A stretch of DNA of 64,000 bases from Candidatus Omnitrophota bacterium. GTDB lineage: Bacteria > Omnitrophota > Omnitrophia > Omnitrophales > Aquincolibacteriaceae. The stretch is taken from NCBI GenBank assembly GCA_020632475.1, contig JACKFM010000001.1:272125-336124 (forward strand), given 5' to 3'. Shown here piece after piece: positions 10,019-43,954 of the stretch. Below the pieces are notes generated by a model that did not search any database, had not been told where the DNA came from, and was given only the letters and a program-made list of their open reading frames with translations. The translations under genes were made by a program, and so were the position numbers. Position 1 is the first letter of the stretch, and the number at the start of each line of letters is the position of its first letter.

Positions 10019-10074
10019 AAAGAGAATAGAGAGAATTCATGGCCCGAAAAGTGAGTGCATTCCAATTGTCGATA

Positions 10075-10133: not shown

Positions 10134-10202
10134 TCTAGACGATATGTTAAAGTGTCCGCCAATGTGATAAAACCCTGATAGAAAGGAAATTTGCTAAAAA
10201 TT

Positions 10203-13225: not shown

Positions 13226-16200
13226 ATGCTTATGCAAAAAACAAAAAAACAATATCTGAAAATCATCGCGGTGTTAACAGCCGTTGTCTTTACATTGACA
13301 TCGCTTGAACTGCAGCCTTTGGCTCGAGCGATGCAGGTGGCTCCGGCGGCTGTTTCAGGTGAGATCTCCCCTCATTCTGTGTTTGAATTAAACCTTCCAC
13401 CGGAACTTGGCGTGATTCAAAACCTCATCAGCGGAGACCGTGGGGCCATTGTCCATTTACAGGCAGCGCATGGCAATTATGACGCACAGAAAAAAATTGA
13501 AAATATCCTGCACTATCTCAAAGATCAATACGGGATGAATCTTTTATTGGTTGAAGGAAGTGCGTTTAAACTTCGGCCTGAGAGAATTCGCTTTTTCCCC
13601 AAACAGATGAATTTGAATAGGGAGATTCTTGAGGGGTTAGCGCACAAGGCCCTGGTGAAGGGCGCCGAGCTTTTTCTGGCGGAGGATAAAGGAGCCGAAG
13701 CCTACGGGATTGAAAATCTTGAGACCTATAAAGCCGATGCCGAGGCCTTCCGGTCTGTTATGGAACACCGTGAACAAATCGAGAATTTCCTGAAACGTCT
13801 GCATCAGGACATTGAGGCACTTAAAGCGCAAACGCTCAACCCGGTTTTGAAAAATTTTTTACGTGAGGCCGAACGCTATTTTCAAAATACGACACTGCTT
13901 GGCGACCGGATTCATTGGCTGGCCGCTCAATCTAAAGATCAGCTGGAAATAGACTTTTCAAATGTGATTTACCAGATGGATTGGCCGATGCTTGTGCGTT
14001 ACTTCGCTTTAAAGACAGTTGAGGGAAAACTGGACTCAACTGCGTTTGAAAAAGAACGCGATGCGTTCCTGGCAGTATTGGTCGGGGACAGGGCCGAAGC
14101 CCTGCCTGCCGGACAGGCGGGCCTGTCCCCGTTGGTCACAAAACGAGTCACGACTCTGCTTACTGAACCTATATCCGAAAACCAACTGCCTGACCCCGAA
14201 ACCGGCCTTCTTTTTGAAAAAATGGCCGAAGCGCTGCCGTTGAATTTTGATTATGACGCTTATCCGAATGTGAAACTTTTTATCGGGCATTTGATTCTGC
14301 AAAGTGAGATCAAAGCCGCTCCTTTATATGCTGAAATCGACCGTCTTGAAAATCAAATTTTAGAGAAACTGATCCGTACCCCCGCTGAGCGTGAAGTTGT
14401 TGAGAAGATCAAACAGGCCAGACTGCTTGAAAAGCTTTTGCATCTTGAATTAATGCCTGAGGAATGGAAAAAACTGCAGACCGCAGACTTGGCGACGGGG
14501 AGAAAAGAGACGGGGCGACAGGGTGAAGGGGTGACGGGGAGTGAGTCTGTCATTCCAGCGGAAGCCGCGCCATCCGGCGGACAAGCAGGAATCCATAGTA
14601 CAACCGAGCCTTCGGCCTTCGACCTTCTGCCTTCCCTCTCTGCTGAGCGGCCGTCCGTTCAGTCCTCCCGCCACACAGAAGGCGGGCAGGCAGCCCTCAG
14701 CCCTCAGTCCTTTGATATCCCCGAAGACATGCAGACGATTTATCAAAACGCGTTGGAGTTTTACCGCCTGGCCGAAAAACGTGATGAAGCGATGCTTGAA
14801 AACATTGAGGCTAAGCTGGCTGAGACCGGAAAGAATAAAGCCGTCGTGATCACCGGAGGTTTTCACTCGCAGGCTTTTTTTGAGCATTTTCGTGAAAATG
14901 GATACAGCTACGCTTTGGTCTCACCCGAGATAAAAGAACTCAGCGGCCGTGAAGCGTATGTCGAGAGTATGCTGAAAAATTCGTCGGCCCACAGGCGACA
15001 AACCGCAGACGACGGACTTGCGACAGAGATTGCTTCGCCTACGGCTCGCAATGACGGTAGTCTAAGTATCATTCCTGCGCAAGCAGGAATCCACAGTACA
15101 ACCGAGACCTCTCGGCCCTCAGCCCTCAGCCCTCAGTCCTCTTTAGAGTCACTTTTCCTCGCCCTCTCGCGTCAGGAAATTGAACAATCCGGCGGCAACA
15201 CACGCTGGCTTTTTCAGCAGGTGCGTAATGAAATTAGAAATGTGCTTAAACGTCACGATTTGAAGGCTCTTGATCTGAAATCTGAGTTGAGGACGGATGC
15301 AACGGATGAATCCGCATCTGCAGCTGCTGCAGATACAGAGATGTTTGCGCCTGAAATTACATGGATCCGTCAAGCTTCAGGTGAACAGGGCGATCAGCCT
15401 TATCTGATTCGTCTAAGGCTTGAACAAAGCAAAGCTCTTTCGGGGGGTACCGGTTTTCAGAACCGTTACCTTGTTGAGGTGGCGGCGCTTGACCAAATGA
15501 TGGATATTGATACGGTTCAAAATAACCCTCGCCTTTATGCCGGAAGTATTTCCTTGACTTTTGACTGGCAGGGAAAGCTGATTAAGAACGAGCAGTTTAA
15601 TTTAATTTTTTTGATCGGAATCGACCTTATTTTTAACGAGATTTTGAAAAAAGATATTCAGCCTTTCATTTTGCAGAAACTCGAAAGCCTGACCGGAAAA
15701 GCTTTTAATGAGACCAATGCCGAACTGATTGATGGTGCGGCATCGTTTGATGATGTTTTGAGACATGACCGGCGCTTGTCGCCTGAGCGTGACTATAACG
15801 CATTAACCCCGGGACAATTCAGGAATACTTTTTATGCCGGTTATGAGAGCGGCCGTATTCAGCATGAGTCCATGTATGAGCAATGGAAAGCTACGGGTGG
15901 AACTGAAGGGGAAGATAAATTTCATATCGGTGGAATGATCATCCTGAGAAAAATAAATGGTAAATGGTCTTTTCTGCTCGGTCGCCGAAATAAAACCGGC
16001 AAACCTTTCTACCGTGACTATACCATTCCTGTCGGCAAGAAAGAATCCCGGATTGGCCTGGGCCTGGAATTTGACCGGTTTTTTAACCAGCGCAAGCTTG
16101 AAAAATTGAAAACGATAGGTCTTACGCTGCATGACGGTGAGATCATGGATCCCGTCGAGTTTATTGCTGAGGCCGCGTTGCGTGAAACGATTGAAGAAAC

Positions 16201-19200
16201 CGGAGCAAAACACGATCCTCTTTACGGCCCTACGGTCTCTGATTTCGTAGCCCGGCTTAATGACTTTGAAGGCTACGATCCCAGAGTTCTAATCAGTCTT
16301 TTTGTTTATATTGATGAAAATGATTCCCCGGATGTAAACGAAACGGAGGAGTTGGTGGATTACCGGTGGGTTCCATTGGATGTGATCCTGATATCCGGGG
16401 ATCCCGGTGAGGCGGTTCAAGAATTTCTCGGTCCCGGAGAGCATCTTATCAGGGAATTTAGAGAAACAGGCCTGTTGCATTTTCAAAAGATTTTGCGCGA
16501 TGCGCTTACTCCGTGGACCAAGTTTCCCTCTAAAACAGAATTACGTATAGAACCCGGCTTGAATCTTAAAAGTGAACTCAGGTCCGGCGAAGAATTCTTG
16601 GCGGCGCATCAAGAGACCGTCGGGACTTATAGCGGGCAGTCCATTCTCTTAATCGGAAGTATGAATGACGGCGACTTAGCACGCTCAATTGCCGAGGCAC
16701 TGATTGCCGGATATGAGAACTTTACGCTACGTCTTTTTGATCCCGATGACGGACAAGTGGTTCAGGAATTTGGGACATCACTGCGCCAGGGTTTAAAACA
16801 GGGGGTTACGGTTACAGCCACCCGTGAGGTTAACGAAGCGCTTAAAAAATTCGCAACGCAACAAGCGACGATTATTATCAATGTCAGTCCGCATGAAAAA
16901 CCGTTTGACGGTTTTGAAAATGTTCCCGAAAGTGTACATGTTTTAAAGGCTACAGTCACGAGCGACGGCAGTGCAACTCAGGATGTTGAGCAACCGTCCC
17001 CTCAGCCCTCAGTCCTCAGTCCCCAGTCCTCTGCTTTAACTGAGCCCTCTCAATCCTTTATGGCCAAATCAGCTTTTGAAAGGAAATTGGAGGCTTTAGC
17101 TGAGCCCGGGTCGGTTACTGAGCGGAACGATGATGGATGGAAAGAGATCGCTGTCTGGTTTTCTTCCTATATGATTGAAGAAATACCCGATGAAGAACTT
17201 TCTGATCTGGATAAAGAAGCCCGTGAAATTTTTATGCGGAGCCTGACAGTAAGCGGCGCCTATAAGGATAACCGTCCCAAAGCAATCACGGCATTTACAA
17301 ATTTAAAAAAATCCCCTCAAGGAATTAAACAATTTAAAGATTTATTTGCCGTTCATATTGCCCACATCAATCATATCATCAAGGCATTGCGTGAAGAGCG
17401 TATTGAAGAACAGGGAGAGATTCCTAAGGCCGGTGCTTCGGATGAGGAAAGACAGCGGCATGATTATAAACAACTTATACGATCCGATGAAAAGAGTGTG
17501 CAGTATGAATTTATACCGAACTTTTTTTCAGCAGGGATGGCCGATGATGGGGAAGATCCCCGAAATGCTGAATCAAGGTTCATTCTCAACCCTTTTTATT
17601 TTTATCGTGAGTCAGGACTGCATGGGGTCACTGATCCCAGTGTGACAGCTGCGCTGCTAATTGATCGTGACAATCCGGTGCGGAGCATTCGTGTGATCGA
17701 AAGTGAAGGACATCGGTCCTTGCTTTTGGAATTCGAGTCGGATCAGACATTGCTTACCCCCTACGGAAAAAAGAAGAGCAGCTATCCCATACCCGGAGGG
17801 TATCTGCGGATGTTTGTTCTGAAGCAAAACGAGGTTGATGATTCCGGCTGGGAGGCGTTCGGAAAAAATATTGAACAGGACCTTGGAACATACACTTTTG
17901 GCGAAGATGAAGATGTTCCGGCGAAAAAACAAAAGCTGGAAGCCTTGTTTGAAAAAGTGACTGCCGGACAAGTTTTGGTTCAGGATCTCTACACACAAAC
18001 GACTCCGCAATTAATTCGCAACTTTTCAGATTACATGGGGCGTAGTGCGGATGAAGCAAATGCGATTTATTTTCACCATTGGGCAATTTATGAGGGGAGA
18101 AAAAAAGATAATCCCGAGAGTGTGACGCCGGTTGCAATTGACCGTGATTTTCTTGAAGAGCATTTTCAGGCCTGGAAAGAAAATAAACCGGTTCCGGATA
18201 TCCCCCTCAGGGCTGTTACCGGAGAGGGGATGGAAACGGTCACGGAACATGAGAGATGGATTGAAGAAATACTTGATCCTGAAAACGGGTGGAATCAGTT
18301 TGAATGGCTTCAGGCGCTTGATGCTGTCTTGCAGTCTCATCTGCCGGAGGTATGGGAGAGTACTATTGCGAGTGGGCCAGGAACGATGCAGTTGGCTGAA
18401 AGCGAATTTCAGACAGGCGGAGGGGCGGAGGATGCCGGTGAGCCGCTTTTGGGAACAAGTTCGTCTATGCTTCCCGGTTTTGAAACCCCGGGGCTCTTTC
18501 AACCGGATGAGCCAAGGAATTTTCTTCTCGCCGAATCATCTAAAGTATGGGAGTTGAACGAATACGAGCGAAAGGTTGTGGCTGAAGTCACGGCTGAAAA
18601 CAAGGAAGCTCTTCGAGATATTAAAAATCGCTTAAATTATAAGATAGCGGAACCTGAAGAGGTTCAGATTTATCTGCGCGCTTATGCGGCAACTTTAAAT
18701 CGCAAATTGAAATCTTATCGACTTGATGCCGAACAAGGTTTGCCGGGCACAGTCGAAGACAATGAAGCTATTTTGGACAGGCCTCTTGAAGAGTCGATAG
18801 AGGCTTATCGGGATGGGATTCGGCATCTTGAAAGACGCCAGGAGTTCGGCACCTGGCTGCATCTTGCTTCCGGCGGACTTGTTGTATCCGGCTCGGAAAC
18901 TGATTCCCGCGCCGCCTTTAATCCGGCCATTTTACTTGCTTTACGAAGAGCAGGCTTTGTGCCGGGGTACCCGGTTCGTGACTTTAATGCGCAGGATTAT
19001 CTTTCAGAACATAAAGAGGCTTTGGATGTCCATCAAAATAAAAATATTTTGATAGTAGGCTTGTCTTCCAAAGAAAGCGAAAAGCTGAGTATCGCTTTGG
19101 CCGAACAATTCGAAACGGAAGGAATCACGATTACACTGGTTGATGAAGCCACAACTCCTGCCGAGGCAAAAGATCATGAAAAAGCCTTTAGAGAGTCTTA

Positions 19201-22200
19201 TCCGAACCTTCATCTTAAGGTAATTACTAAGCCGGGAGAGATTCAAGGTGCGTTGTCAGAAGCCGGTTTGATTTTTAAAACTCATGATAGTGAAAAGCTA
19301 TTTATTTCTGAACAAAAAATTCCTGAGGGAGTCAGAGTTCTTGAGGTGCCCTTAGCCGCTCAGCAAACCATAGAGTCGCTTTTGGATGACCGTATCCGGC
19401 CGGAAAAACTGAATGTTCATAACCCTTTGTCGCTCGGGCGTGTCAACCCTATCCGGCGTATTATCGCGGTTGAGGGAAGAGGTAAAACTCCGCCGCACCT
19501 GGTGGTGGAATTTTCAAGCCCTGCGGGCGGTTATTCCTCGAAATTTATCCGGTTGAATATTCTTCACGAATCGCTGCCTGAAAGCCCCCGGGAAGATGAG
19601 ATGACCGATGCTTTTATGAAACGTGTTTTTGAGTACAACTATGCCGTGTTGCAGGGCTTTGAAATTAACGGAACGGAGTCGGCAGAAGACCGAAAAAGAA
19701 TTATTGACGGATTAAAAGATTTGGCCGCTCAAGGATTGATTCTGGCCGAGACCCGTTATGAGTTAAAACATGATGAGGAACATATAGGGCGTTTTGCCGA
19801 TTTTACCGCCAGATCAGAAACGGAAGCAAAAGCCATTCGGGCTTTTTATCCGGCGATATACGCGAGGGACACCTTGGCCACTCACCGTATGAGATTGGCC
19901 CAAAAGCTGGGTTTTAATCTAGGAATGTATGGTCCGCAGACGGCGGCAATTTTTCTTAAGCGGGTTCATATGATTGATGTTCATCCGGAGCTGAGCATTC
20001 TTCGGGATGAAGCCGAATCGAAGGGGTTCTTTGCGCCGCTGATTGCCTTGAGTGTCGCCGCCGAAGATGATGGATCGATTTTATTGGGCGATGCGAATGC
20101 CGAAATAGATTCTTTTATGGCCAAGGTTTTGAATGTTATTGGAAAAGCCAGGCGGCCTTCAATTGATTTGGTCGGGCGGCTTGAAACCGTTGAAGCATTG
20201 ATTCAAACCAAAGCCGAATCGGATGCTGCCGGAACTGCCAATTCAAAAGCATGGATCATTGATACCGGTGATCCTGAGGAGGACAGAACGCTTGCCCGCG
20301 AAATTCGTTACATCTTCAGGCTGGAAGTTCTTTATCGCCTGACTTATGAAACATTTCACAGTGACAATCTTATCAGGGGAACTCATGCTGATGGTACGTC
20401 GATGCGTGTTAAGGTTTGGAATGCTCTTTCGCAGAAGGCAGAGCAGATATGGCACAGTGATACTACGTCAAGCCGCATCTGGATGCTTGCTCTAAATGTA
20501 AACAGAGATAAGTGGGAGTCGTTTGTGGCTGAGCAGTGGCCCGGCTTTTGGCAAATTTTTACCGAGCCTGAAACCGAGGATAATGGAGCTTTTCTTGCCC
20601 AAAATTCCGGTGTTATGGCGATTAATCAGCGCAGACTGCTTCCTGCGAGTTTGCCTGAGACGTTGGGTAAATTTTCAAAATTCACAGAAAGAGATATGCC
20701 TAGAGAAAAAACCGGTTTTGATATAACCGCAATTCCAAACAGAACAACATTAACGGCTGAGGAAATTAGGGCCGGGATAACCTTGAAAAAATTCCCGGCA
20801 CAAAAACTGAACGGGGGATTTGAAGCTATTTTGCAGAGTTTGAAGCGGTCTGGCATTGAAGATCTCGCCAGATTTAAACGCAAGGAATCCAGAAAGATGC
20901 AGGCTTTTCTTGATGACATCGTGGCTATCCGTGAACTTTATGAAGCCGGGCATTATGAAGAGGCTCTAAGAATTGTGAACCGCTACGTTGCCTTTCAGCC
21001 TCAGCCAGCCTCTGCAGCGGATGGGGCCGTGGTTAGCGGGGACAGGGCTGAAGCCCTGTCCCCGGATTCAACGGCAGCGGCAAGTACAGCCGCATTACTC
21101 ACCGGTACCGGCGATGAGGGTGCTCACATTGATTGGCGCGGGTACCTGCCCGAGGGGGATTTGATCGAACCTCCGGTTGATGGCGCGGCAGAGGCCTTAG
21201 GTGAGATGCAGACGCGTTTGATCGAAAAAGTTAAGCGGCGTTCAGGAGGAACCTCCGTGGTAACCATTCTTCACGACTTGGATCGTGCCGGACATATTGG
21301 ACAAACATTTAATGTCCTTATGGCCGCGCTTGCAAAAATTGCAGAGGGCCATGAGGATGACGACACTGCAGCGGCACGTGCGCTGGTGGATGAGATTAAA
21401 ATTTTAATCCCCAGGCAAATTAAATCAGGGGCCTCTGCAGACATTGATGCCTTTGAAGAAAAAACACATGAAATGTCAGATGACGATGCGCTTAATGAGC
21501 TTGAAGTCATAGAAACCGATTTTAGTCAGACGGTTGACGTTTTGAGAGGACCGGTGGCAGGAGAAATTTTTAGTGATCAGTTGGATGAAGGGACCCGGGC
21601 TTTTGAACAGAGCCTTGAGTATCTTGGTAAAGTCCGCCGTGTTTTGGAAAGTTCAATTGCAATGACCCATGATGCAGCTAATCATCCCGAAACTGTTCGC
21701 GGTCTTTTACAATCAAGCGCGGAACTTGCCGGTGAATTCAACGCTGAAAATCAATGGGGGATACGCCTCGGGTTCGCGAGGGCTGCTTATGCACGCCGTT
21801 TTACCGACGCGGCTCTTGCGGGTCAGACGCAAACACAGACCGCAGACTTGGAGACGGGGAGAGTTGGAGACGGGGAGACCCGCCAAAAAGAAGTCGGGCA
21901 AGCGGGGCGAGAGTCTGTTGGCGTCGATGCAGCGGAACCGACACTTCAAAAAAGCAGAAGACAGCTTTTGGCTGAAACACAGCCTGAAGTTTCCAAACAC
22001 GATCCGGAAAACCCGGATGAATTATGGACTTTTGTCCAAAGTGAAGGGTGTGAAGGGTGCATGATTGTGCAGTTCACACCCGGAGGCTGGCTTTACTCAA
22101 CTGAAAGTCAGGCACGTGTGCGCGAGGCTTTTAATAAAAATGATCAAACGCGGGCTAAAAAAAGAGATGCTGACACAGTGTCGAATGCTATGGCGGCATA

Positions 22201-25200
22201 TCGGGAGACATCGGCTGGAAGCGTTGTGATTGTTCCGGACGAAAGAATTAATCTGCGCGGGGCATGGCATGATTCGGGTAATAAGGTGCTTTATTTTGGC
22301 GAGAAAGTTTTTCGTGCTGCAACGGCTGCGATGATTGTCGTCGCATTAGAAAAACATGATTTGAATGGCCTGAATCAGGCGGCTGCAGCGTATTGGAAAT
22401 CGGTCGCTCAGTCAGCGCAGCCTGCTGCCGTGCCTAAAAAGAAAAAAGATAAAAAAGAAAAAAAGAAAAAGCGTAAAGAAAACAGAGCGGCGGCAAGAGG
22501 GCCTCAGGATTTAACCGCAGAGATTGCGATCCTCGAAGGTTTTCCCGGTATGCAGGAAGAGTTGCGTGCAGTAAGCGTGAATGAGTCTGCAAGTCCGGAA
22601 GTCGAAAGTCCGGAAAGTCCTCAACATGACGTTGAACCCGTTCAGCCGGTCGAGCGACTAGCGACGAGCGACGTCAGTACAGCTGAGTCAGAAGGTCCGA
22701 AAGAGGCTGTTGAGCCAGTTGAGCTTCCTCAGTCCTCCCGCCAAACAGAAGGCGGGCAGGCAGTCCTCAGTCCTCAGACCCCTGAAGCCGTTGAGTCCGA
22801 ATCCCAAGTCGTCGTTGAGCCGGTGGATAGTGGACCGTCGACTGTGGACTCTAGTGCAGCTGAGATTGTTGAACCAGTTGAGCCTATGGACCATGGACTA
22901 CCGACGGTGGACTCTTCTGGTGCAACCGAGCCCCCTCAGCCCTCAAATATACTTGACCCCGCATTGCGCGTGCGATTTAAAGAATCGGTTCAGGCCGGCG
23001 TGATTCGCGGGCAGGTTTCCGCAAATAGGATGTTTTTAGAAAAGCCCAATCCGCTTGTCGGCGAATTCGATCAAAAGATTGTACTTGATACAAGCGAGAT
23101 GCCCGACGGAGCTTTTTTTGTCATGCCGGTTTCAACCCCTAAGGATACCGTGATGCCGCTTGTTCAGGCGCCCGATGCGGTTAAGAGGGGGCGTATCGCC
23201 AAAATACGCCGGTATGTCAGTCAGCACACACTGGATACTCAGATCATGGAGCATACGGATCAAGTGACGGCTCTGGTCAAAGCCGGCCGGGCGGTAAAAG
23301 GAGAGCCTAAAACACGGTTTGAAGCGATTTTTGACCGGGGTATTGAATTACTTTTAATTCCGGATGCGTCCGGAAAGACTGTTGAACAACGGATGCATGA
23401 AACGGAGGTCCGGTATGCCGGGCGACATGAAGAGTTTGAAAAGACGGTTCGGGCAGTTCAGGATTATAACCGCTGGTTTCTCTACTACAGTAGCCGGTTT
23501 GTAGATTTGACCGGCCGTCTCAAAAAAAAGACCGGGGACAATCAACAGGTCGATGTCGAAGTTCTAAGTGAAATTCTGACTGAGTTGGCGCGGAGTGAAA
23601 AGACATGGCCTGAGCTTCAATCTGAGATCAAAAGGATCAGAGAACATATTCCGTCTTCCGGAACCATGAATTATCAGGAAGCGCGGTTGCTTATCGGGCG
23701 GGGTGAGTCGATCATCGGAAACATGATTTTGGATGATATGCTCAGCGCGGCATCTCCTGATATTTTGCAGGTTGTCTTCTACGATGCGCGCAGCACTTTT
23801 TTTCTGGAGTGGTATCGAACTCAAAAACAAGCGATTCCCGAAGGCGAGGATGACCTTTTGCGTTTTGAGGCCACGCTCTTAATGAGTGTGCGCATGCTGG
23901 TCAACTATAAGCTGGAAAGCCAAATGACGGAACAGATCACGGAAGCCGCCAGGGAGTTTAGTGCGAATGAGCGAATGACCCGTAAAGTCGTGAGTGCAGG
24001 AGGCCTCCTTTATGCCGGTCAAACCAACCGTTATTTTCAAGGCGGCGGTGCAATCGAAACCAGCGGTGAATATGCCCCGAATTATTCACGGATCCATAGC
24101 AGCGCTTTTTATGAAAAAGGAGACCGGGTCATTTTTCTTTATCATTCCGAAACCGGTTATCCCAACCCTGCCGAGCAGCAGAATTATTTAAACGACTCAA
24201 CAATCCTGAGAGAGTCTCTTGAAGACAATGCCGGTGTTTATCTGGGAACGATTGATGCTGAAGGGGAGTTGAGAATTTTTGAATATGCCGGCAATGATTT
24301 AGGAATTGAAACATTTGAATTTGTGGAGGCCTTTGACCGGGCCTTGGACAAAAAATTCTGGGCCCCGATCAAAACTTCGGCATTGAAAAGTGAAGACGAA
24401 CTGAGGGTGGAACGTCGCCGCATCACCGCGCATCAGTTTGCTCAGATTGCCGAAGCCGAGCTGGCACAAATACCCGGCATGGATCAGGTCAAAGCCTCAC
24501 GTCTAATGCTCGATGCCCGTCGTCAGTTTAAACCCGAGCTTGACCGGCTGGCGGCAATGAAATTGAAACACCCCGGTGCACCGCCGAAAGCCAAAAATCT
24601 TCAAAAAGCATACAAGAAACAATTAAAAGCAGTCCAGGTGGAATTGGATGTTGTGGACGATTTGATTGATTCATTGGCGGCACGGCTTGTGATGTATATC
24701 AGTGAAAGGATTGCGGCCGAAAGCCCTGATCACGGGGATTGGAAGCAGATTGCAATTGAAGGCCTGAGCGGAATTGTTCCGCCGCGATGGGTGCCTGTTG
24801 AAGAACTTGAGGTCCCCGCACAACCTGTGCCTGCCGGGAAATCACCGGCGGCCGGTTTAAGTGATGAACGGCAGGCTAAGCTTGCGTCGCAGATTGACCA
24901 AGTGATTGAATCTGTGATTTCCAAAACGGAAATGACTGACGGGGATGAAATTGCAGCGCTTCGTGCGTTTGCACATACGCAATGGGATCACGGTGGTAGT
25001 CCGGGTTATGCACGGCTCAAAGCGGCCTGGAATCAGAACCGCGCGGTTTTTGTACAAATCAGCGCATTGCAAGGTGTGGAACCCGGTGATCTGCAGGCGG
25101 TTGAAACCGCTCTCAGTCATTCTGTGCAGGCCACCAGGCCGCAGGCAAGAATCGAGCAGGCGCAAAAGGAATTGCTTAGCCGCATGGCGGATGCCGTATT

Positions 25201-28200
25201 GACGGAAATTGAAGAGGCTCTTGGGGCGGTTTATGCCGGCGCGCGGGCCGAATTAAGACAGCAGGTCCGTTCCGAGATCAGGATTGAAGCGGTTGAAGTG
25301 CTGGATGAAAAGCTGACGCGTGTTGAGGCTGCGATGGCTTTAATGCAGCGTTTTCCTGATCTGGCGGATGCGGAGCGAATGACACAGCTTAACCGTGCTA
25401 AGGCACGGATTCAATCGATACGTTTAGCGGCCCCGCTTTTATTTAGATTCGATCAAGCTCATCCGGAAATCACGGCTGAGAGCGCGAAGACCGTTCGTCA
25501 GCTTTTGACGGATGCCCGTGATGTGCTGGCATCCATTCAGGAATTTAATGTACCTGAAGATTCCGCCCGTTTGATTGAAACAAGAAATCGATTGATTTAC
25601 CGTTATGCAGAGGTTGTACAGGCAGCCGTACCGCAGGACCCTACCGGCCCAGATCCCCAATCAGCCGGTCTTGCGTCTGCGGCTGCCGCTCTGCTTACGG
25701 AGTTTCATGAACCTGATTTTCAGACAGCCATTGATGCGCTGCAGCGCTTAGTCAGCAGTGCCCAAAGACGGAAGGCCGCAGAGCAAATGGTCGAGTCTTT
25801 GACCGGTTTACAACCGGGTTTGCAGGATGAGTCTCTGACGAGTGCCGTTGCGGTACGTGTGCGGGAAGTTTTGGAGGGTGTCGAAGGCTTTTTAACCGGG
25901 CCTGATGCACAAGAGGATGAATGGTCAGAAAGAGTGAGAAATCTCCGGGACGATATGATTGCTCAGATTAGCAGACGGATTGATCAGGTCGGGCACGATA
26001 AAGGGGAAACGGCGGCCGACCTTCAGAAAACCGTGAATCAGCTTAAAGCGATTCGCGAAGGATTAGAGGGAACAGAAGTTCCGGTTTTAAGTCCGGTGAT
26101 TGAACGGCTTCATGCCCTTGAAGAAACAGTTGGCCATGAGTTTCATGCGGCAGTGTTGAGGGAACGGCCGCTTTATGAAGATTTTCGAGAGATTGAAGGG
26201 CCGAGTGATTATGTTAAAGATCTCTTGATCAGAATTTTAAATGTGGAGTCTCAAGGGGACAAAACGCCGGCACAGTGGAAAGCCCTGCATCAGGAATTTT
26301 TCGATTATTTTCTGGTCCTGGAAGGAAATACCGCGAGACCCGGCCAAGCGCAGCCTAATGCGGCGGAAGCAGAAGTCTGGAATAAAGCGCGCAAGGCTTT
26401 TGATGGAGAAGCTGGGCCTAAGATGCAGGCCTACAGACACGAATTCGGCTTTACGGCAGGTAAGCTTTTGACCAAAGAGTTTGCTATGCAGAGAGATCCC
26501 AAAAACAAAGTCGGCAGCTTCGGCTCTGAAAGTGACCAGCCTTTAAGTGCGAAGCGAATACAATTGCAGCCGACCAAAACGCTGCTCTTAATGGCTTTGA
26601 ATATGGCGCGCATTTTTGCCGGACAAGCTGCAGAGGCTCAGGAGCATCGGGGGCCGCCGCTTGAAGCCATGCCTGAAGCGAATCCGGCGATGAATGCTGA
26701 AGAGGCCTTTGCCTTTATGCGTGAATATCTGATTAATGATAACCGCCGTGATGGTTTCCTTTATTACAATAATCAGCCTCTTGCCCTGGGATACTTATCC
26801 AGTAGTGCGGTCCACGAAAATTCAGTGGGTGCGCCTATTAATCTTTCCCATCTTGAAGCGGCGCGTCATAGTGGTCTTATGCCCGTTTTAGGGATTGAAC
26901 AGTTTTTGCGGGCTATTAGTTTTAACGGCGTTAAAAAAGTTGATTTGATTGAGGCTAATGCGGACAATCCTCCCGCCCTGGCGGTATGGTTTGCTAAGCC
27001 TTTTACCGAGTCATTTACCGAATTTGCTTATGAAGGCGCGACGCTTGTTGTTTTAAAAGAAGCTCCGCAGGAAGGCCGGGATATCCATGACCTGGTTGAA
27101 TCCTCCGGCGAACAAATCAACCGCTATGTTTTTTCGGAAAGCGACGACGCTGATGAAAAGGCCCGAAAAACTGCTGCCTTGCTTGATTTGATCACCGAAG
27201 AGAAAACCCTTTACCGGGGAACCTATCGTGTTTCCTTTTTTGCCGAAAACGCCGTAAAACTCGGCCGTACGATGGGGCGTACACGTGCCGAGGAATGGTT
27301 GATTACCCAGAGCGTTAAATTAGGTTTTGTCAGCCCGCAGGCCTACATTAAGCGGTATGGGGAATCCGCACCGACCTACGCCGAGTGGTATCACCGTTTT
27401 CGGTTATTTAAACAGGTGCAGCGACCGCTGCTGGCTTTTTTTACCGGAGCCGGCCCCAGGTCCAGTGAGCTTGAAAGAGAAAATATCGCATTCATGATTC
27501 AAAATGAGCTTACTCTGCCGCTTGCCCGGTTACTTATTGCCAGGTCGGGTAAAGATTGGCTGATTGATCCGCGTGCGGTGGCTGGTTTTGCTGCGGGAAT
27601 GAATAAATTTATTGCGAGGGGAGTGGTTGGTTCTTTAGATGCTTTGGCGTGGGCGAATACCGAATTGGAGTCCAATGCGGCCAGGGCGGCTTTTTCGGCG
27701 GAATTCGGCTTAAGCCTTTTGAGTGAGTTTCAGAGAAAGAATTTACAGGGACTGGATATTTATGATTTGCGCCAGGCACTGGTGCGTGAAACGGAACTGG
27801 TTTTCGGAGTGAATCTGAATATAGACGTACGCACGTACCGCTCACCGGTCAAATCAGCCAAAGACGCGGCTGCCGTTAAAGTTCAGATCGAACAGGAAGA
27901 CAATGCGCTTTGGAACCTGTTTGAAACCCCTGGGGATCAGCAGGTCAGCGCCGAGATTGAACAAAGGCTTGAAAAACGCCGCCAGCTTGGGCCCGATCCG
28001 GTGACCGTGGACTGCACCTCGGCCGAGAGCTGCGCGCAGGGCATCGCGGATTTGACACAGTGGGTTCGTGTGCGTCAGACGCATCCAGAAGTAACGGATT
28101 ATTTGGGCGTGATTGAATCGGCCGTGCAGGCACGTGTTTTGGCCGAACGCGGAAATGTAAGACAGGCGTTATCTGAAATTGAAATCATTTTAAGTCAGCC

Positions 28201-31200
28201 CGGTTTTGATCAGCATCCCAAGCATGCGGCAGTTACCTCCTTCGGCGGCTATCTCAACGAACGTTTGCAACGGCGTGCATCGGAATTACCCGGATTAATT
28301 TTTGAAGCGCTGACTGCCGCGCAGGACCAAACAACAGTTGATCAGCTGCAAGGTTATGCTGTGGAACTTGAAGCTTTGAGGGGACAGACCACTGATGCAA
28401 CTGAGTCCGCTCAGTCCTCCCGCCAAACAGAAGGCGGGCAGGCAGTCCTCAGTCCTCAGTCCTTAATAGCAATCCGCCAGGCCTACGAAAACGGACGGTT
28501 GAGAGAAGCGGCTGATCAGGTTTCAGGGCTCGCTCAGGCACCAGGGCCGTATCAGGAGACTCTGCGCCAATTTGCCGGCAGAATCGAACAGGAGATTGAA
28601 GCCAAGGTGACTCCGTTGGAACGGCAGATTCAGGAGTTTGTACAGGATTTATTTAAACGAGTTGAGGACAATCTGGCTAGAGCTGTTTCTCAAAGTACTG
28701 CCGATACCAAAACGGCTCTTGCTGAAGTTGAAAGAGATCTCCGTGAAGTTCAGGCGCGGTTAGGGCATCTTCCGCAGTCTGATTTTCTTGCGTCTGAGCG
28801 GAAGCGTCACGAGGTCTTTTCTGCGCAGATTGGGCGTATCCGCCCTGCCGTAGAGATGATCGAAGAAATCGAATTTTTGCCGGGATCTTTTGTGCCCGGT
28901 GATTATGAGGCGAATCAGAATCAAATCAGAACATTATCCGGCCGGGTGGATACGTTCATTGCCTCTGAGCTTCAGGACCAAACGGATGCAGACTGGATTC
29001 TGAAAATTCAGAATGCAAGGCAGAGTCTGATTAACGAATATACGGATGAAGCCTCAGAGACTTTGACAGCTCAATTGGAGGCCATTGTATCTCGGGGAGA
29101 TTTTCAAGCTCAAAGCCAAGGCTTAGCTGAACTTCAGGAAAGTATCGGGACTGTTCGTGCGTTTACGGCTGAGTTTAAGGTGAGCAAGGAAGATGATTTG
29201 AATAGGCTTGAAGTTGCCATTCAGGAAAAAGAAAAGGAACTTCAGGCAAAAAATGAAAGAGTTCAAGGCGTTCCGGTGATCATTGAAAGGATGAGAAAAG
29301 CGATCAGTGACATTCAAAGCGGAGAACAGGTTTCCGGCGGCCGGGTCAAACGGCTTCTGGCCGAAGGTTATGAACTCGGGCGGACTCTGGTTCCGGCCAA
29401 AGATGAAGGTGAGCTTGTCGCGCTTGGGAATGCCCGTAAAGATTTGGCCGGAGAATATTCTGAAGGTCTGTTGCTTGAGCTGGATCAGCGTAAAGATTTG
29501 GCCCACGGAAGAGATGCTGACGGGAAGCCGGTGGAGGCGGTTGAATGGACACCCCAAGAGATGCGTGATTTTCTTCTGAGATTGAATGATTTGTTGAATG
29601 TGGTTCGCAGTGCGCCTCAGGATAGGACCGACCCGGATACCGACCATTTATATCTGGGAATACAGGATGAGATGGCTGTGATTTTGAGACAGGGCGCGGG
29701 TCTGGCCGAGGGCGATATTTTGCGGTTACACCGTGCCAAAACAAAAAAAAGCGAAGAAACCACGATAGATATTCGTATCGACCGGATTGATTCAGAAGAG
29801 GTGCATTTTTCGGTGACGCTGCAGGGTTCCGAGGTGGCTCTTTCAGGGCATGATCTCATGGAAGAAACGCGTCATGAAAACGCGTGGCCCTTTAAAGCGG
29901 CTGAAGTGTCGGACAAGAGACAGAAGAATCCTGGAGAATCCAGCATGACGGTGACGCTGGGTTATCCCTCAGACGGTTCGGAGGCGGCGAGTCCCGATTG
30001 GGTGTTTGGCCTGGGTGAGGCCAAACCACTTTTTATTGCATCCTCCCGTGCGCGAAATGCACAGGGAACGGCTGATGAACAGATTTTTGAATTTTTGCAA
30101 AAAAATGCGGACATTCTGCTGAGTGCATGGCATCTGGATGAAGACGCGGATTATGTCACACTCGCTTTATATGAAAGAGATGAATCTGAAGAGTGGAGTC
30201 TGGAATTTGTCGAAAACCCCGAGAATGTTCAGTGGCGGCGCGATGCCGAAAGGGCTCTTGAAAACAAGGAGGAGAGAGCTGGTGAATTTCAGGAGTTGAT
30301 AGAACAGTTGCAGCTGGCGGAGCTTGAAATTAACGATGAGGAGACCGACTTTGTTCCGACGCTTGAAAATGTTCATCGAGTTGGAAATCTGCTCAATGAT
30401 GCGGCCAAACAATACAAACGCCTGGTGCCAGGGGTGGATGATGAAATGATGCAGAGTGTTACCGATGCTTTGACCAGCACTCTTCAGGCCTTTTTTACGA
30501 GTATTCTGACGGCCATTTATTATGAAACCGGAGAAAATCAGGATGGGCCGGAGATTTCCGCGGTTTTAAATCCGGATACGAATTTAAATCTGAATTTTGT
30601 GCATGAGTTGATGCTGATTGTGGGCGAAGCCATACGGACCTTGAGTGATTTTGAAAGCTATGAGCAGGTCCTGCGCGAACAATGGCTTTATCCGCTTTTT
30701 GAAATGGAAAATTACTTTTTAAAACAACACGGGGTCGCTCTTGTGGAAAACAGCCGGTTGACGGCCGTTGAAAGAACGAGCGGTGAATATAGTGATTTTA
30801 ATTTTGAAGGTATGGCTCAAGACCGGCAAAGCGGGCGGATTCAAAAAGGTTTGATCTCATGGACTGCACGTACACCGGCCGCGCAACTGCCTTTGATCGG
30901 AAGATTTATTAACTATAAATATCTGGATGAATTGAAGGGTGAGACTGATCCGTGGATGGCCTATGTGCATGAAGTTATTTCCAGAAGTAAACGACGGCAA
31001 CGTACACAAAAAGACGGTGGTGTCGTCACAACCCGGTTTAATATTCATTCATACGGCAACGATGAGGATAAACGCTGGTTTAATGCTTTTGCTCTTTATG
31101 ATCTCGATACCCTGATTGGGCTGGTGGGTGATGCGGAAACCGGACAATCGGGTTCTTTGGGTCTTGAAGAAGAGGACATTGACCGCTTAATGTTTGAAGC

Positions 31201-34200: not shown

Positions 34201-37200
34201 ACCCGACCAGGTTGAAGAAACAAGTGTGCTCGGCGGCCGAATTGAGAAACTGGAGTTAATTTCCGAACTTTTGGACGATCAGCTCAATGCCGGTGTGCCC
34301 AGGCATGCCGAACTCCGTACGTTGACCTCCCTTAAGCGTTTGGATGATAAAGTCATTGAGATTTATGAAGCCCGCATGGCGGCACTTAAAGCCAAATCCC
34401 AAAAACATAGGATCTTTTTTGGAGTGATCGCACTGGCGATTGCAGCCCTTGCCGCTATTTCATGGCAGACAGCGATATTGCTTGCAGCCCCATACGTGAT
34501 TTATGAGCTTGCGCGCATTTTGTTTTTTGATCATACGACGGTTCGCTGGCCGGTTCTGGGTGCTTTTTTTCGGGCAATTCCTGCGCGCGAAATGCAATTT
34601 CCAGCCCTTCAGAGGTTGTATGCCGATCCCGTGCAGTATTGGAACCAACGCAGTGTTCGTCAACGCGCACAAAGAATTGCGGATGTTGCCGAACAACGCT
34701 TTAAAGACGAGGTGAAAATTGTCAGGACCGTCGAACATACGGCTGATTTTGCTGAAAATGCGGCGGATGTTCTAAAACTGGTCACGGGTCGTGGTGGGGA
34801 AATTCAGGCCGGAAAAGGATTTGATCAGCGTGTGTTCACCCGGTTCAAAAGGGTTTATGCGGTAGACGAGGATGCTGTTTTTATGCTGACTCGGGACGGC
34901 CGTTTTTATCTGATGCATAAACTTGAATCCGGGACCCAGGAGGCTTCCGGCCGCGTGCAGGCCATTTTTGAAGCCGAGAGTCTGGGCGCTGTGACAGTGC
35001 CCATTCAGGTATCCGGGCGTCTGATCCGGAAAACCGTTCAGCAGGGCAAACAACGCGTTGAAGAATCCGTCACTAAAATTGATGGAGTGCCGTACGCCTT
35101 TTATAAGATCGAGAATTATCCCGATTGGTTTTTTAATCCCGAAGTAACCCTTGAACAAAAACAAGCGATGCTTGTGCGTGAGCAGAGCCCAGACTTGGTG
35201 ACGGGGAGACCGGGAGATGGGGAGACAGGGAGAAAAGAGACGGGGCGACAGGGTGACGGGGTGAGTGAGTTTAAAAGTCAGCAGGTCGAAGGTCCGGAAA
35301 GTCCTCAAGTCCCAGTTGAGTCCGCTCAGTCCCCAGTCCCCAGTCCTCAGTCCTCTGAAGCAACTGAGCCCGCGCCACTGCTCCCGAGCGACGAGCAACC
35401 AGCGACGAGCGACATCAATCCAGCCGAGTTGGAAAATGTTTCCGCGGATACGAGCGATCAAACCGTGCAGCTTGTGCGGGATCATACGGCGTATGCGGCC
35501 GATTTAAGCGGAGAAAGTGCCGGCGCAGAGGAGTTAAGAGACGCGTTGGCACATCTGACGCATGCCGTGCAATTGGGTTTGAAATTATTGGAGGTTGCAG
35601 CGCAAGATGCAGATACGCGCGATCTGCTTTATATCGCCGGGCAGTTTAAGTCTCTGTCGGATGCACTTGAGCGTGCTTTTGAGATTCGCGGAAGGTATCG
35701 TGCCTTAGTTCCGGAAGCCGAAGAACCCAGTCTGGATGAAAATCCGCTGATTCTGATGACTGCAACTCTATGGGAAGATGAATTCATGAAATATTTACCG
35801 GTGCCGCAGGCAGCCCGGATTTTGGATGCCGCCGCGCGTATGGCCTCAGAAGAACAATATTCTGAATCGGATTTGGCCGACAGTTTGTGGGCCACAGCAC
35901 TTCAAACCCTGGATCGCGACTGGACTCTGGATCTGGGATTTGAACGTTTGATGTATCAAAAGCAGGAAGCCGTTCAGAAAGAAAAGGTTAAAACGGCTGA
36001 GGTGGATTCTGAAAACCCGGCGCTTAAAAAGCAATTAAGTGATTTCTATTCTGGAGTCGGGCGGTTAAGAAAAGGGACTCCTGATAATGAGGCCATTATT
36101 GCGGTCGCTCTCCAGATTTTTGAAGCGATCAGTGACTGGCCGGATGAATATTATCAGAGAAAGGACGTTCAGGGGATGTCGATTGCCATGAGTCAGCTGG
36201 CGGGAATCATGCGTGAGCATGACCTTTATGAGCGTGCGGTAGAACTCCTGAAGCTTTATGTTTCCAAAACTGAAAATCAGCCGAATGCGTTTATTCTTTT
36301 TCATCTGGGTGGAATTTACCGCCGTGCAGCCCATTTTGCCTGGAAGGCAAACGATAGAAAAACCAATATCCGCTATTTAGAACGATCACTTTTTTATTAT
36401 GCGCAAGGATTGCCGGGTGCCAATCCGGATGAAAAATTGGATCCGGTGCTTGAGGGGTTGGCCAATCAGGTCATTCCGACGTTACTTAAAGCCGCACGCG
36501 AAGGCCGTTTTGATTGGAAAATGCTTAATCCGACACTTCGGCAATTTGTGACTTCAATCCGTCTGCTGATGCGACGGCATGAATGGATTCCTCAAAGCCA
36601 TGGTCAGCTGCTTGCACTGGCTTTAAACAAGATTGTGTTGGATTGGAAAACCCAAGGCCTTTATCAGGCTGCACAATTATCCGCTGAGTTGGCCTATGCG
36701 CTTGATCCTGTCAATCCGTATGTTCTTTTTAATCTTGCCGACATTGCCGTGGCGCAGGGGCGTTTGGACAAAGCGCGTGAATATAGAGAAGAGATTGTCC
36801 GTCTGAATGAGACCGCAGTAACACCATTTGATCTAAGAGTGCTTAATAGCCTTATTCGGCAGGCCGAGCGCAAAGAGGACCGCACGGATAAGGTGTTTGC
36901 ACCTGCGCATCAGGTGGTTATGTCGACCAAGAGAAGACGTGTGTTGGAAACAAAACTTCGGACATTGCCGCAAACAGCCGCGGCAGAGATTGACGAAACC
37001 ACACCGGCCGAAACGGACTGGAATGCCCTGATTGCCCTTTTGGATGAGATTGAGGTCTTTCACCGCCGTGTACGGACCGGTGAGCTGGTTGATGGAGCAG
37101 TGTTTGAAGAACAGGAGCGCCTTCAGAATCAAATCGCCGGATATGAATTTGAAGAAATCGGAAGATTTTATGCATTATTGTATCTGGATTCCACCGATGA

Positions 37201-39994: not shown

Positions 39995-39995
39995 T

Positions 39996-41146: not shown

Positions 41147-42565
41147 ATGAGTCAAAAACTGAAGACAAAATCCAAAAAACCCAAAATTCAGGGTAAGATC
41201 AAGACCGCTAAAAATTCAAAAGGCAACGAGAGTAAACTTATTTCGATCCGTATCCCTGAAAATGTCATTTCGAAATTGAGGGAAGTCGCCGGGAAAAAAG
41301 GCGATGGCGGATATCAGCATCTGATCAAAACTTATATTGCCAAAGGCCTCGTTAAGGAAGACGAACTTTCCGGAAATTTGATCAGCCAGGACACGGGCGC
41401 AAAAGAACCCGTTCCCGCCAAGAAAAAAGTCAAACCGATTTTAAAAGAAACCCTGAAGAAGATCGGAACGCCGGTACCGAAAACAGGGAAGAACGACCGC
41501 AGTAATGTGGCCCAACTGACCCAGTCGGATGTAATCGCCGAAGATATCCGGCAGCTGGCCAAGGCTCTGGAACCGTATTATTCCTTTTTTGCGGGGAAGA
41601 CGTTTTTGATTACCGGGGCTTTTGGTTTTCTGGGGCGTTACATTGTCAACTTATTAAAATATCTCAATGATGAAGTCCTTGAAGAAAAAACCAATGCCTT
41701 GCTTCTGGATAATTTTGTAACCGGCTATGAACAGCGCGTAATCCATGATAAGCATCTGCGTTTTCACCGTCACAATGTGATCGAGCCTTTTCAAACGGAT
41801 GAGGATGTTGACTACATCATTCATGCTGCCGGCATTGCCTCTCCGGCCTACTATACCAAGTTTCCGATTGAAACCATGGATGTCGGTACGATCGGTACAC
41901 GGAATATGCTGGAACTGGCTTATGAAAAGAATGTGAAGAGTTTTCTTTTTACGAGCTCAAGTGAAGTCTACGGTGACCCTGATCCAAAATTTGTACCGAC
42001 CCCCGAAGATTATTACGGCAATGTTTCGATTACCGGGCCGCGTTCCTGTTACGATGAGTCCAAGCGTTTTGGTGAAACGATGACGCTGGCTTACTGGCGC
42101 ACTTATGGCGTGCCGGTGAAAAATGTGCGGCCGTTTAATGTTTATGGTCCCGGTATCCGTCCGGATGATTTTCGTGTGCTGCCGAATTTTATTGAACATG
42201 CCCTGCGTAAGGAGCCGATTCCGATTCACGGTGAAGGCCGCAACACAAGATCGTTTTGCTACATCAACGATGCGATTGAAGCCATTTTTAGAATCCTTTT
42301 TTCCAATCATAACGGAGAAGCCTTTAATGTCGGCAATCCGTCCAACGAAATATCGGTCAAAGATCTGGCGCTGATGGTGGCACAAAGCATGCCCTATAAG
42401 ATTGATGTCGTACACATTGATCCGCCGCATGCGGTTTATGCCAGCTCGGATCCTAAGCGACGCTGCCCCGACATCTCTAAGTTGAAAAAATTGACCGGGT
42501 ATAAACCGCGTTACAGTCTTCAGGAAGGTATTTCCCGAACGATCCAATGGTTTTGCGAGTTTTGA
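41147..42565 (+). CDS. NAD-dependent epimerase/dehydratase (UDP-glucuronate decarboxylase-like extended SDR) with a roughly 150-aa lysine-rich N-terminal extension
   Basis: From about aa 150: KTFLITGAFGFLGRYIV (GxxGxxG), catalytic YDESK, and NVRPFNVYGPG. The N-terminal 150 aa are K-rich (MSQKLKTKSKKPKIQGKIKTAKNSKG...) and include a segment resembling ribbon-helix-helix/BrnA-like proteins (ISIRIPENVISKLREVAGKKGDGGYQHLIKTYIAKGL). No in-frame stop separates the two parts. Confidence 0.8.
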   Translation: MSQKLKTKSKKPKIQGKIKTAKNSKGNESKLISIRIPENVISKLREVAGKKGDGGYQHLIKTYIAKGLVKEDELSGNLISQDTGAKEPVPAKKKVKPILKETLKKIGTPVPKTGKNDRSNVAQLTQSDVIAEDIRQLAKALEPYYSFFAGKTFLITGAFGFLGRYIVNLLKYLNDEVLEEKTNALLLDNFVTGYEQRVIHDKHLRFHRHNVIEPFQTDEDVDYIIHAAGIASPAYYTKFPIETMDVGTIGTRNMLELAYEKNVKSFLFTSSSEVYGDPDPKFVPTPEDYYGNVSITGPRSCYDESKRFGETMTLAYWRTYGVPVKNVRPFNVYGPGIRPDDFRVLPNFIEHALRKEPIPIHGEGRNTRSFCYINDAIEAIFRILFSNHNGEAFNVGNPSNEISVKDLALMVAQSMPYKIDVVHIDPPHAVYASSDPKRRCPDISKLKKLTGYKPRYSLQEGISRTIQWFCEF

Positions 42566-42573
42566 CCCAAATA

Positions 42574-42599: not shown

Positions 42600-42710
42600 T
42601 AAAATGCGTAACTAAGGAAATCCGCCACAAAGAAGGCGGATTAAATTCGCACAAATCATTTATGCTTCTTTCGGTCGCATAAATGATGTGCTCATTTAAG
42701 GAGATTTCCC

Positions 42711-43880: not shown

Positions 43881-43938
43881 AGGACTGAGGACTAAGCGTA
43901 GAGGACTGAGTCCTCAGTGCTCATAGCTCAGTCCTTTG
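43881..43938. repeat. intergenic cluster of inverted ctcagtcct units (family B in reverse orientation), likely terminator
   Basis: aggactgaggactaagcgtagaggactgagtcctcagtgctcatagctcagtcctttgag. ggactgag (43903-43910) pairs with ctcagtcc (43927-43934), followed by ttt. The same 9-mer in forward orientation is tiled through both giant ORFs. Confidence 0.5.
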
Positions 43939-43954
43939 AGTTAAGGAGAGATGA

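Follow-up and report, generated by a model that had tools for sequence, protein, structure and literature searches.

A 24-nt palindrome nested in the heptanucleotide arrays of a giant Omnitrophota gene, a probable mini-insertion element

Whether a sequence repeated almost letter for letter within one very long reading frame is a motif of the protein, or a piece of DNA that has spread regardless of the protein, is the question raised by giant open reading frame (ORF) 1 of a Candidatus Omnitrophota bacterium (contig JACKFM010000001.1; the whole 64,000-nt stretch analysed is referred to here as the window). A preliminary description had noted a hairpin unit of about 50 bp, family A, present three times in this ORF at 90-100% nucleotide identity, and the repeat itself was readily confirmed. 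The 45-mer common to the copies has exact matches at 22733-22777 and 28415-28459 and a further match, with three mismatches, at 14663-14707; 100 shuffled sequences gave none. Copies 2 and 3 share an exact run of 50 nt (22728-22777 and 28410-28459), which reads CTCAGTCCT-CCCGCCAAACAGAAGGCGGGCAGG-CAGTCCTCAGTCCTCAG and from which copy 1 differs at 4 of 50 positions (92% identity). All three are translated from the forward strand in one common reading frame, spaced 8,070 and 5,682 nt apart. Their identity had also been described as far above that of the surrounding ORF. Numerically this holds, the 150-nt flanks on either side being 25-31% identical; as an argument it does not, because 25-31% is the random level and the flanks are unrelated sequence rather than paralogues, so that the comparison is uninformative and a synonymous-site comparison inapplicable.

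The 50-nt unit is a true repeat but not a single entity. Its core is an element of 24 nt, CCCGCCA[A/C]ACAGAAGGCGGGCAGG, with sharp boundaries, a 6-bp GC stem, an 8-nt loop and a CAGG tail, often followed directly by CAG. This element is nested in a heptanucleotide array, the composite unit consisting of one heptamer, the 24-nt element and two to three further heptamers. The predicted stem CCCGCC/GGCGGG with its 8-nt loop, proposed earlier as the core, is the dominant local fold, and in the window copies it is lengthened by CCT/AGG contributed by the flanking heptamer. The variable loop position is C in copy 1 and A in copies 2 and 3. A loose pattern (CCGCCNNNNNGAAGGCGG, with at most one mismatch) matched the window five times, against 0.06 matches expected. 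The three copies first reported are the full set of intact ones in giant ORF 1, but a decayed fourth had been missed; the sibling hairpin reported between genes is real and is placed in Table 1 together with the other copies. Four of the five family-A copies in these 64 kb of genome are intragenic.

The sequence in which the element is nested belongs to a wider repeat system. Tandem Repeats Finder detected period-7 arrays of CAGTCCT, CAGCCCT, CGAGCGA, GCCTTCG, ATGGACT and CTAAGCG and period-8 arrays of GACGGGGA. Thirteen of the 15 period-7 arrays are located inside the two giant ORFs, where they are translated, and two lie between genes, while the window's 14 ordinary genes contain no period-7 or period-8 array of at least 2.4 units. 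Only stop-free orientations were found inside the ORFs; the stop-containing AGGACTG and CTAAGCG arrays are confined to intergenic DNA. Since the period of seven runs through all three frames (QSSVLSP...), the array cannot be a protein-level repeat, and the occurrence of the CAGTCCT array also between genes, and inverted, identifies the heptamer as a genome-level rather than a codon-level DNA repeat. The ATGGACT heptamer likewise forms an inverted intergenic array at 10074-10134.

The arrays also provide sites with and without the element. In a MAFFT alignment (A1) of the three family-A units with five paralogous heptamer modules of both giant ORFs, one clean gap of 24 columns separates the three filled modules from the five empty ones at the same heptamer junction, and all three intact copies occupy this one fixed junction of (CAGTCCT)n. 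Copy 1 is found in a long module type (GAGCRRCCGTCC...), with its best empty counterpart at 39161, and copy 3 in a short type (GAGTCCGCTCAG), with its empty counterpart at 35309. Such a difference between similar modules implies that gain or loss of the 24 nt came later than the modules themselves.

Further evidence came from other genomes. A 27-mer search of 185,579 species-representative genomes gave one match, in another Omnitrophota metagenome-assembled genome (L001). The open frame carrying the 27-mer extends over at least 2,666 aa and contains the element a second time, as a variant. A 23-mer pattern matched ten times in JGI metagenome contigs of 45-63% GC with wholly unrelated flanks, compared with a chance expectation of about 0.2 by our own rough estimate, the size of the collection not being stated. 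These external copies were collected by exact match, which leaves diverged copies uncounted and makes their uniformity partly a matter of construction. Contigs carry one to four copies of the element, the stem is preserved in 14 of the 15 distinct copies, and copies with A and copies with C in the loop are both widespread beyond the window. The three intact window copies are therefore as likely to go back to two or more independent acquisitions as to one spread. The genes and spacers concerned are listed in Table 1.

The clearest case of insertion is found in lysS of L008, whose lysyl-tRNA synthetase has its best named relatives among Acidobacteriota proteins. At the site of the element this protein has eight extra residues that are lacking in all 29 of its 29 closest orthologues (up to 83% identical), and at the nucleotide level the two nearest sequences, L015 and L016, lack exactly 24 nt. 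The same insertion is carried by L017, an independent ENA assembly, which is syntenic over 7.1 kb (75.6% identity) with L018, a relative lacking the element; the 24-nt insertion is the sole indel of more than 16 nt in that interval. As judged from these alignments, the element demonstrably entered a pre-existing coding sequence.

A second comparison concerns L003 and L010, which are orthologous and about 88% identical outside indels (our own estimate from alignment A3). Both carry the 24-mer, identical in the two despite the approximately 12% divergence of the gene around it by the same estimate. In the region of L010 from 1595 to 2010, compared with 560-900 of L003, L010 has extra palindromes of 30 nt (CCTGCCTACGCCGAGGCTTCGGCAGGCAGG) and 33 nt (CCTGCCTGCCGCGCTGCGCTTGGCGTAGGCAGG), forming a family bounded by CCTGCCT and AGGCAGG, as well as two CCGCC-type hairpins absent from L003, one of which (TCCGCCACAAAGCGTGGCGGA) is a close relative of the window's sibling hairpin. 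Close relatives among these organisms thus differ by the gain and loss of small GC-rich palindromes.

Table 1. Family-A copies, heptamer arrays and modules, and giant ORFs of the window, with copies of the 24-mer in other genomes (positions are those of the window unless a locus is named).
Feature	Position	Strand	Remarks
Giant ORF 1, 8,922 aa	13226..39994	+	Host of all intact family-A copies; Pfam: NUDIX and TPR only
Giant ORF 2, 5,401 aa	45530..61735		
Copy 1, C variant, CCCGCCACACAGAAGGCGGGCAGG	14667..14690	+	Long-type heptamer module; composite unit 14641-14711
Copy 2, A variant, CCCGCCAAACAGAAGGCGGGCAGG	22737..22760	+	Composite unit 22728-22777, identical to copy 3
Copy 3, A variant	28419..28442	+	Composite unit 28410-28459, heptamers continuing to 28463; between two predicted helices
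Decayed fourth copy, CCCGCCAAAAAGAAGTCGGGCAAG	21879..21902	+	Stem broken; same reading frame (TRQKEVGQA); directly 3' of octamer array
Sibling hairpin, AATCCGCCACAAAGAAGGCGGATT	42619..42642	+	Intergenic; no CAGG tail; closing pair C-G to T-A (compensatory)
Single heptamer TCAGTCCT	14659-14666	+	5' of copy 1 element
Heptamer array (CAGCCCT/CAGTCCT)	14691..14711	+	3' of copy 1
Heptamer array (CAGTCCT)	22761..22777	+	3' of copy 2
Heptamer array (CAGTCCT x3)	28443..28463	+	3' of copy 3
Empty module, GTTGAGCAACCGTCC then (CCTCAGY)n	16985..17044	+	Without 24-nt element; aligned module starts 16980
Empty module, short type	35309..35368	+	Left flank GTTGAGTCCGCTCAG resembles that of copy 3
Empty module, GAGCAACCGTCCATTCAGTCCT/CGGCCCTCAG...	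39161..39220	+	Closest empty counterpart of copy 1; aligned module starts 39156
Empty module	39257..39316	+	Aligned module starts 39252
Empty module	45759..45821	+	Near N-terminus of giant ORF 2
Inverted array, (AGGACTG)n facing (CAGTCCT)n	43881..43945	n/a	Intergenic
24-mer in L003 and L010			Inside small conserved ORF
24-mer in L004	within 24-330 (L004)		Intergenic, ~70 nt downstream of tRNA-Pro(GGG)
24-mer in L005			Inside TolB-like protein
24-mer in L006			Intergenic, between toxin-antitoxin genes beside type I restriction-modification system
24-mer in L008			Inside lysyl-tRNA synthetase
24-mer in L009			Intergenic, ~400 nt upstream of large serine recombinase gene
24-mer in L011			In probable secreted protein, just after signal peptide

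That unrelated genes of other bacteria contain the same 24 nt, cleanly inserted in frame, indicates spread as DNA rather than as a protein motif, and we consider it probable that family A is a 24-nt palindromic mini-insertion element that spreads as DNA and is tolerated in disordered linkers. It is filed here under very small palindromic dispersed insertions, as a member of no named family. The positions of the intergenic copies, close to a tRNA integration site, to the gene for a serine recombinase and to a defence/toxin-antitoxin island, suggest carriage on mobile DNA. Two side observations belong to these loci. The 3' end of the tRNA-Pro of L004 (CCAGTCGCCCCGAC) is repeated about 165 nt further on, like a small integration scar, and further CCGCC hairpins, some with GTAG, are found in the interval. 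L006 contains several period-7 arrays (GATTTCG, CAATCCG, AATCCGA, AATTGTC and GTCTCCA) between 1139 and 8894, so that at least one further organism has both heptamer arrays and the 24-mer.

The reading frame of the copies is informative on how insertions have been sorted. The length of the element is a multiple of three and no stop codon is present in any of its six frames. Copies 2 and 3 of the window are translated as SSRQTEGGQAVLSPQS and copy 1 as SSRHTEGGQAALSPQS. About nine of ten coding copies use the RQTEGGQ frame (sense, offset 2), which gives RQTEGGQA, or RHTEGGQA for the C variant, sometimes with a preceding S; this applies to window copies 1-4, L001 twice, L005, L008 and probably L011. 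Sense offset 0 (PATQKAGRQ) is used in L003/L010 only. The RQTEGGQA frame is the sole hydrophilic, uncharged-to-acidic one, the others being strongly basic, or hydrophobic and Cys-rich. We read this bias as a survival filter on insertions and not as a sign of peptide function. In a single-sequence AlphaFold model of 230 residues around copy 3 (mean predicted local distance difference test score, pLDDT, of 71), the chain is helical throughout save one coil at residues 96-112; pLDDT falls below 50 in one segment only (residues 89-107), and the unit, at residues 100-115, overlaps both the coil and this segment. As modelled, copy 3 forms a short coil of about 20 aa inside a continuous helical region and not a long linker. 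The remaining copies are located in low-complexity linker sequence which, from its composition, is probably disordered.

The preliminary description had argued for recent spread or gene conversion of DNA in place of protein-level selection. Its placing of the process at the DNA level is upheld by the copies in other genomes, the lysS insertion, the filled and empty modules, the period of seven and the lack of relatives of the linkers among known proteins. The word recent has no means of dating behind it, and selection on the encoded peptide does act, as the filter deciding which insertions survive.

New copies would arise when the hairpin is inserted by a trans-acting enzyme recognising single-stranded hairpin DNA. 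The candidate class would be the HUH/Y1 transposases, of RAYT or IS200/IS605 TnpA type, to our knowledge the only class that mobilises DNA hairpins and leaves no target duplication. Once one array of a genome had received the element, it might alternatively be passed to other heptamer arrays by gene conversion. Selection would retain an insertion only if the frame stays intact and the added peptide is a harmless flexible loop, which would explain why copies build up in giant-protein linkers. In this scheme the hairpin need not serve the cell; that it may itself be maintained is hinted at by the compensatory C-G to T-A change of the sibling and by the unchanged element shared by L003 and L010.

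Several points weigh against such an element. Neither the window nor the locus proteins scanned revealed a mobilising gene; a transposase domain was likewise absent from the window and from the ten largest open frames of L003, L005, L006 and L009-L011 that were scanned. The apparent copy number is low, at one to four per contig with the exact 27-mer in only one of the species-representative genomes, in contrast to repetitive extragenic palindromes (REPs), which number tens to hundreds of copies. Neither a conserved target sequence nor a target duplication was seen at the insertion sites (alignment A4). The exact-match collection of the external copies makes part of their uniformity an outcome of the search. 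As the three intact copies occupy the same module position, they could all descend from a single insertion if the composite was later converted or duplicated, with no need of ongoing mobility, and the strong frame bias could reflect a peptide-level function. Finally, the proposal does not account for the identity of the 24-mer in different phyla.

A bolder version of the proposal, which we regard as speculative and rather unlikely, is that the 24-nt hairpin ranks with the smallest known mobile DNAs, is active in several phyla (Omnitrophota, Acidobacteriota and others) and homes to heptanucleotide arrays by an undescribed mechanism. Together with the arrays it would then provide joints, stop-free and preserving the frame, which would give rise to disordered linkers and at which giant-gene segments could be shuffled or duplicated by recombination in frame, and the junction in the public contig JAGQKW010000530.1 described below would be a real recombinant.

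Among the alternatives, the one that survives best sees in the linkers fossil spacers from between once separate genes: neighbouring genes would have fused into the giant ORF, and its hairpins and arrays would be former intergenic REP- or terminator-like elements that are now read through, with no insertion into coding DNA in this genome. The present intergenic DNA does contain the same heptamers and two hairpin families (10074-10134, 42572-42642 and 43881-43945), giant Omnitrophota proteins have been described in the literature as multi-enzyme fusions, and the sub-repeats follow one another in a common order in the linkers, from a repeat termed D1 and octamers to heptamers. Against this, the predicted coil of copy 3 interrupts a continuous helical region, the modules place the gain or loss of the 24 nt after their own origin, and lysS is a case of entry into existing coding sequence. 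We therefore think this origin improbable for the 24-mer; it is better suited to explaining where the arrays are located, and for the arrays it is compatible with a mobile 24-nt element. The D1 repeat itself (CAGACYGCAGACYTGGNGACGGGGAGA, translated QTADLxTGR) was observed at 14477-14540, 21836-21879, 31448-31481, 35183-35264 and 39113-39146, where it is followed by G-rich octamer arrays (GACGGGGA)n and opens most linkers of giant ORF 1. From their sequence, the octamer arrays might be putative G-quadruplex formers.

It was also considered whether SSRQTEGGQAVLSPQS is a functional peptide, such as a protease-processing, glycosylation or docking site of a giant polyprotein, duplicated so recently that its nucleotides are still identical. 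All four window copies and nearly all coding copies elsewhere do share one reading frame, and the copies are located at apparent domain boundaries, in predicted coil. A functional peptide is nevertheless very unlikely given that the same 24 nt are also found in non-coding DNA and, in L003/L010, in the frame PATQKAGRQ; that they were inserted into a housekeeping gene, lysS, of another phylum; that the flanking peptide is a translated period-7 DNA repeat also present between genes; and that the fourth copy is decaying in both peptide and stem. A protein repeat or linker family was likewise not supported, phmmer with the 87-aa linker 1 giving no match at E values up to 0.001 among 1.84 billion representatives and Pfam giving nothing there. 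A 70-aa synthetic query for RQTEGGQA-containing proteins gave no match, a result that carries no information because the query shared words with one candidate only.

Alternatively, the hairpin could be a functional RNA or DNA structure selected in place, for example a site of translational or transcriptional pausing, an RNase site or a protein-binding site, aiding the expression of a 27-kb mRNA. The near-universal stem, the compensatory change in the sibling and the unchanged element of L003/L010 in a gene about 12% different (again by our own estimate) would fit this explanation, as would the folding of 80-nt segments around copies 1 and 3, which scored better than shuffled sequences (z = -2.4 and -3.0, respectively). 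Copy 2 did not fold better than shuffles (z = -1.3), the conservation of the stem is in part an ascertainment effect of the exact-pattern search, and the stem was lost in the fourth copy with the ORF undisturbed. Rfam returned no match in the window at the gathering score and, around copy 2, only noise at E values up to 10. An intrinsic terminator is not indicated, the stem being followed by CAGGCAGTCC without a T-run; in the one region scanned for terminators (39900-45600), the sibling and its neighbouring hairpins were not called. The contexts are moreover mixed (lysS, a secreted protein, a toxin-antitoxin spacer, a tRNA flank) and share no obvious regulatory logic. A selected structure is accordingly given very little weight here.

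The repeat has had consequences for assembly. A 600-aa query around copy 3, used in a search for orthologues of giant ORF 1, matched a single partial protein from the same population, named by NCBI as from Candidatus Omnitrophica bacterium and encoded on contig JAGQKW010000530.1 (L014; 1,124 nt, assembly GCA_020429935.1). In L014 the 50-nt repeat is exactly the point at which the upstream side of copy 3 (98.5% identity to window 28187-28459) gives way to the downstream side of copy 2 (100% to 22728-23628). On account of these unequal identities the contig is most likely an assembly chimera, and the identical in-frame repeats would account for at least one chimeric public contig. As all copies share one frame, either a real recombination or a wrong join between copies would keep the ORF open. 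That the repeats were themselves made or misplaced by metagenome assembly is scarcely credible, for although L014 shows that the repeat does confuse assemblers and a wrong join would leave no broken ORF, independent assemblies agree on the element with its flanks (the window and L014; L008 from JGI and L017 from ENA; L002 from JGI and L007 from ENA), a stop-free hairpin of 3n length inside lysS in two data sets would not be expected, and only the order of segments between copies, not their existence, is at risk.

In its way of working, family A is most like the small dispersed repeats (SDR1-8) of Nostocaceae. These are reportedly 21-27 nt long, the size class of the present 24-nt element, and are said to be nested in heptamer arrays and hairpins. 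Family A is similarly dispersed, hairpin-associated, nested in tandem heptamers and sharply bounded according to filled and empty sites (modules and lysS orthologues). Independent support for the nesting comes from the Nostoc trnL intron, in which stem-loop insertions are found at a fixed position of a 7-nt repeat region (PMC4476775). The SDRs have been found only in Nostocaceae (PMC5861425). Here, in contrast, the lineages are Omnitrophota, an Acidobacteriota-like contig and unassigned metagenome contigs, which makes formal SDR membership unlikely; most copies are inside coding sequence and translated, and the apparent copy number per genome is low.

The arrays resemble the heptanucleotide repeats of cyanobacteria and Xanthomonas, the Nostoc heptamer being presumably the one called STRR1 (CCCCAGT). 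Both are period-7 arrays dispersed over the genome, near gene ends and between genes, and their motifs are related: the G-rich strand of the Nostoc heptamer reads GGGGA(C/T)T (PMC4692102), of which the window variant CAGTCCC is a rotation. The translated state of most arrays, inside two giant ORFs, sets the present ones apart.

Palindromic elements of Rickettsia (RPEs) measure roughly 100-150 nt and reportedly keep a consistent reading frame. They are palindromic, lie in frame in protein genes that stay functional, are confined to Rickettsia and end in CGTC (PMC3733652). The likeness, again a working resemblance only, consists in a palindromic, in-frame insertion of constant frame tolerated as a surface or loop peptide; the differences are the length of 24 nt and the lack of CGTC. 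A long palindrome of RPE or MITE type is not apparent in the linkers, which taken whole (221-261 nt) fold no better than shuffles (z of -0.8, +0.2 and -1.9).

REP superfamilies are defined by a GTAG or CGTC tag, and some species have intragenic REPs (PMC3733652, PMC3116915); PVC phyla are reported to have REPs, and Acidobacteria to have related transposases (PMC3733652). The element shares with REPs its character as a 20-40-nt GC-rich imperfect palindrome and a presumed movement without target duplication, and with the intragenic ones its being tolerated in frame. It differs in that neither GTAG, CGTC nor their complements are present in the 24-mer or conserved in its flanks (alignment A4), no RAYT gene was seen in the window or the locus proteins scanned, and the copies appear to be few and predominantly intragenic. 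Its sequence is also identical in different phyla, whereas REP families are species-specific, and it forms no inverted dimers as REPINs do.

Other classes were set aside more briefly. A phage origin is not supported, the 23-mer pattern being absent from 2.9 million viral contigs, nor is carriage on plasmids, blastn of a 35-mer giving only chance-level partial matches (E of 1 to 4). The copies are spaced by several kb within one ORF with no regular short spacers, unlike a CRISPR array. A miniature inverted-repeat transposable element (MITE) would be 70-300 bp long with terminal inverted repeats and a target-site duplication, compared with 24 nt here and no duplication at lysS or at the module junctions.

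Giant Omnitrophota genes are a puzzle at present. Two preprints that describe giant genes of this kind discuss domains and protein repeats, and neither contains the terms hairpin, palindrome or linker according to a text search. The linkers of the present giant gene are built from genome-wide period-7/8 DNA repeats and from a palindromic insertion of 24 nt, which in other phyla has entered ordinary genes as well. If this were general, it would identify a concrete source of the disordered spacers that hold giant multi-domain proteins together, and would extend very small mobile repeats, documented so far essentially in Nostocaceae, to uncultivated phyla. It would also be a warning to annotators that conserved-looking 'motifs' such as RQTEGGQA or SPQSSVLSPQ are translated selfish or slippage DNA.

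The giant ORFs are accompanied in the window by ordinary genes for a UvrD-type helicase, VanY, TrpRS, a photolyase, epimerases, a GGDEF/EAL regulator and glycosyltransferases. Further small repeats were noted among them. A second hairpin family, (A/G)GGGACAGG-loop-CCTGTCCC(C/T), occurs at 21037-21064, 55039-55066 and 42572-42601 and also at 14111-14128; it is in frame both in giant ORF 1 ('GDRAEALSP') and in giant ORF 2, and its intergenic copy lies directly after the stop codon of the gene at 41147..42565, 18 nt upstream of the family-A sibling hairpin. An intergenic repeat of about 100 nt is present in two copies approximately 93% identical (3738-3840 and 8944-9050), with inverted ends TTTCACCAG...CTGGTGAAA and an internal stem TTCTCCGGCGC/GCGCCGGGAGAA in which the two differences between the copies are compensatory (G to A paired with C to T). 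This repeat could be MITE/REPIN-like or small-RNA-like, and has no match in Rfam.

Within giant ORF 1, CAAGCAGGAATCCAYAGTACAACCGAG occurs twice (14555-14613 and 15060-15111) and is translated as IPAQAGIHSTTE, with a short hairpin ATTCCTGCGCAAGCAGGAAT at 15071-15090 before it. We take this peptide to be like 'words' such as IPAKAGIQ, which are presumably derived from small GC-rich hairpins and common in hypothetical proteins of uncultivated bacteria; similar strings were seen in L005 ('CRDCFVATLLAMT') and L001 ('EIASSPAASRNDK'). Just upstream of the copy-2 linker, an A-rich run at 22436-22470 encodes KKKKDKKEKKKKRKE.

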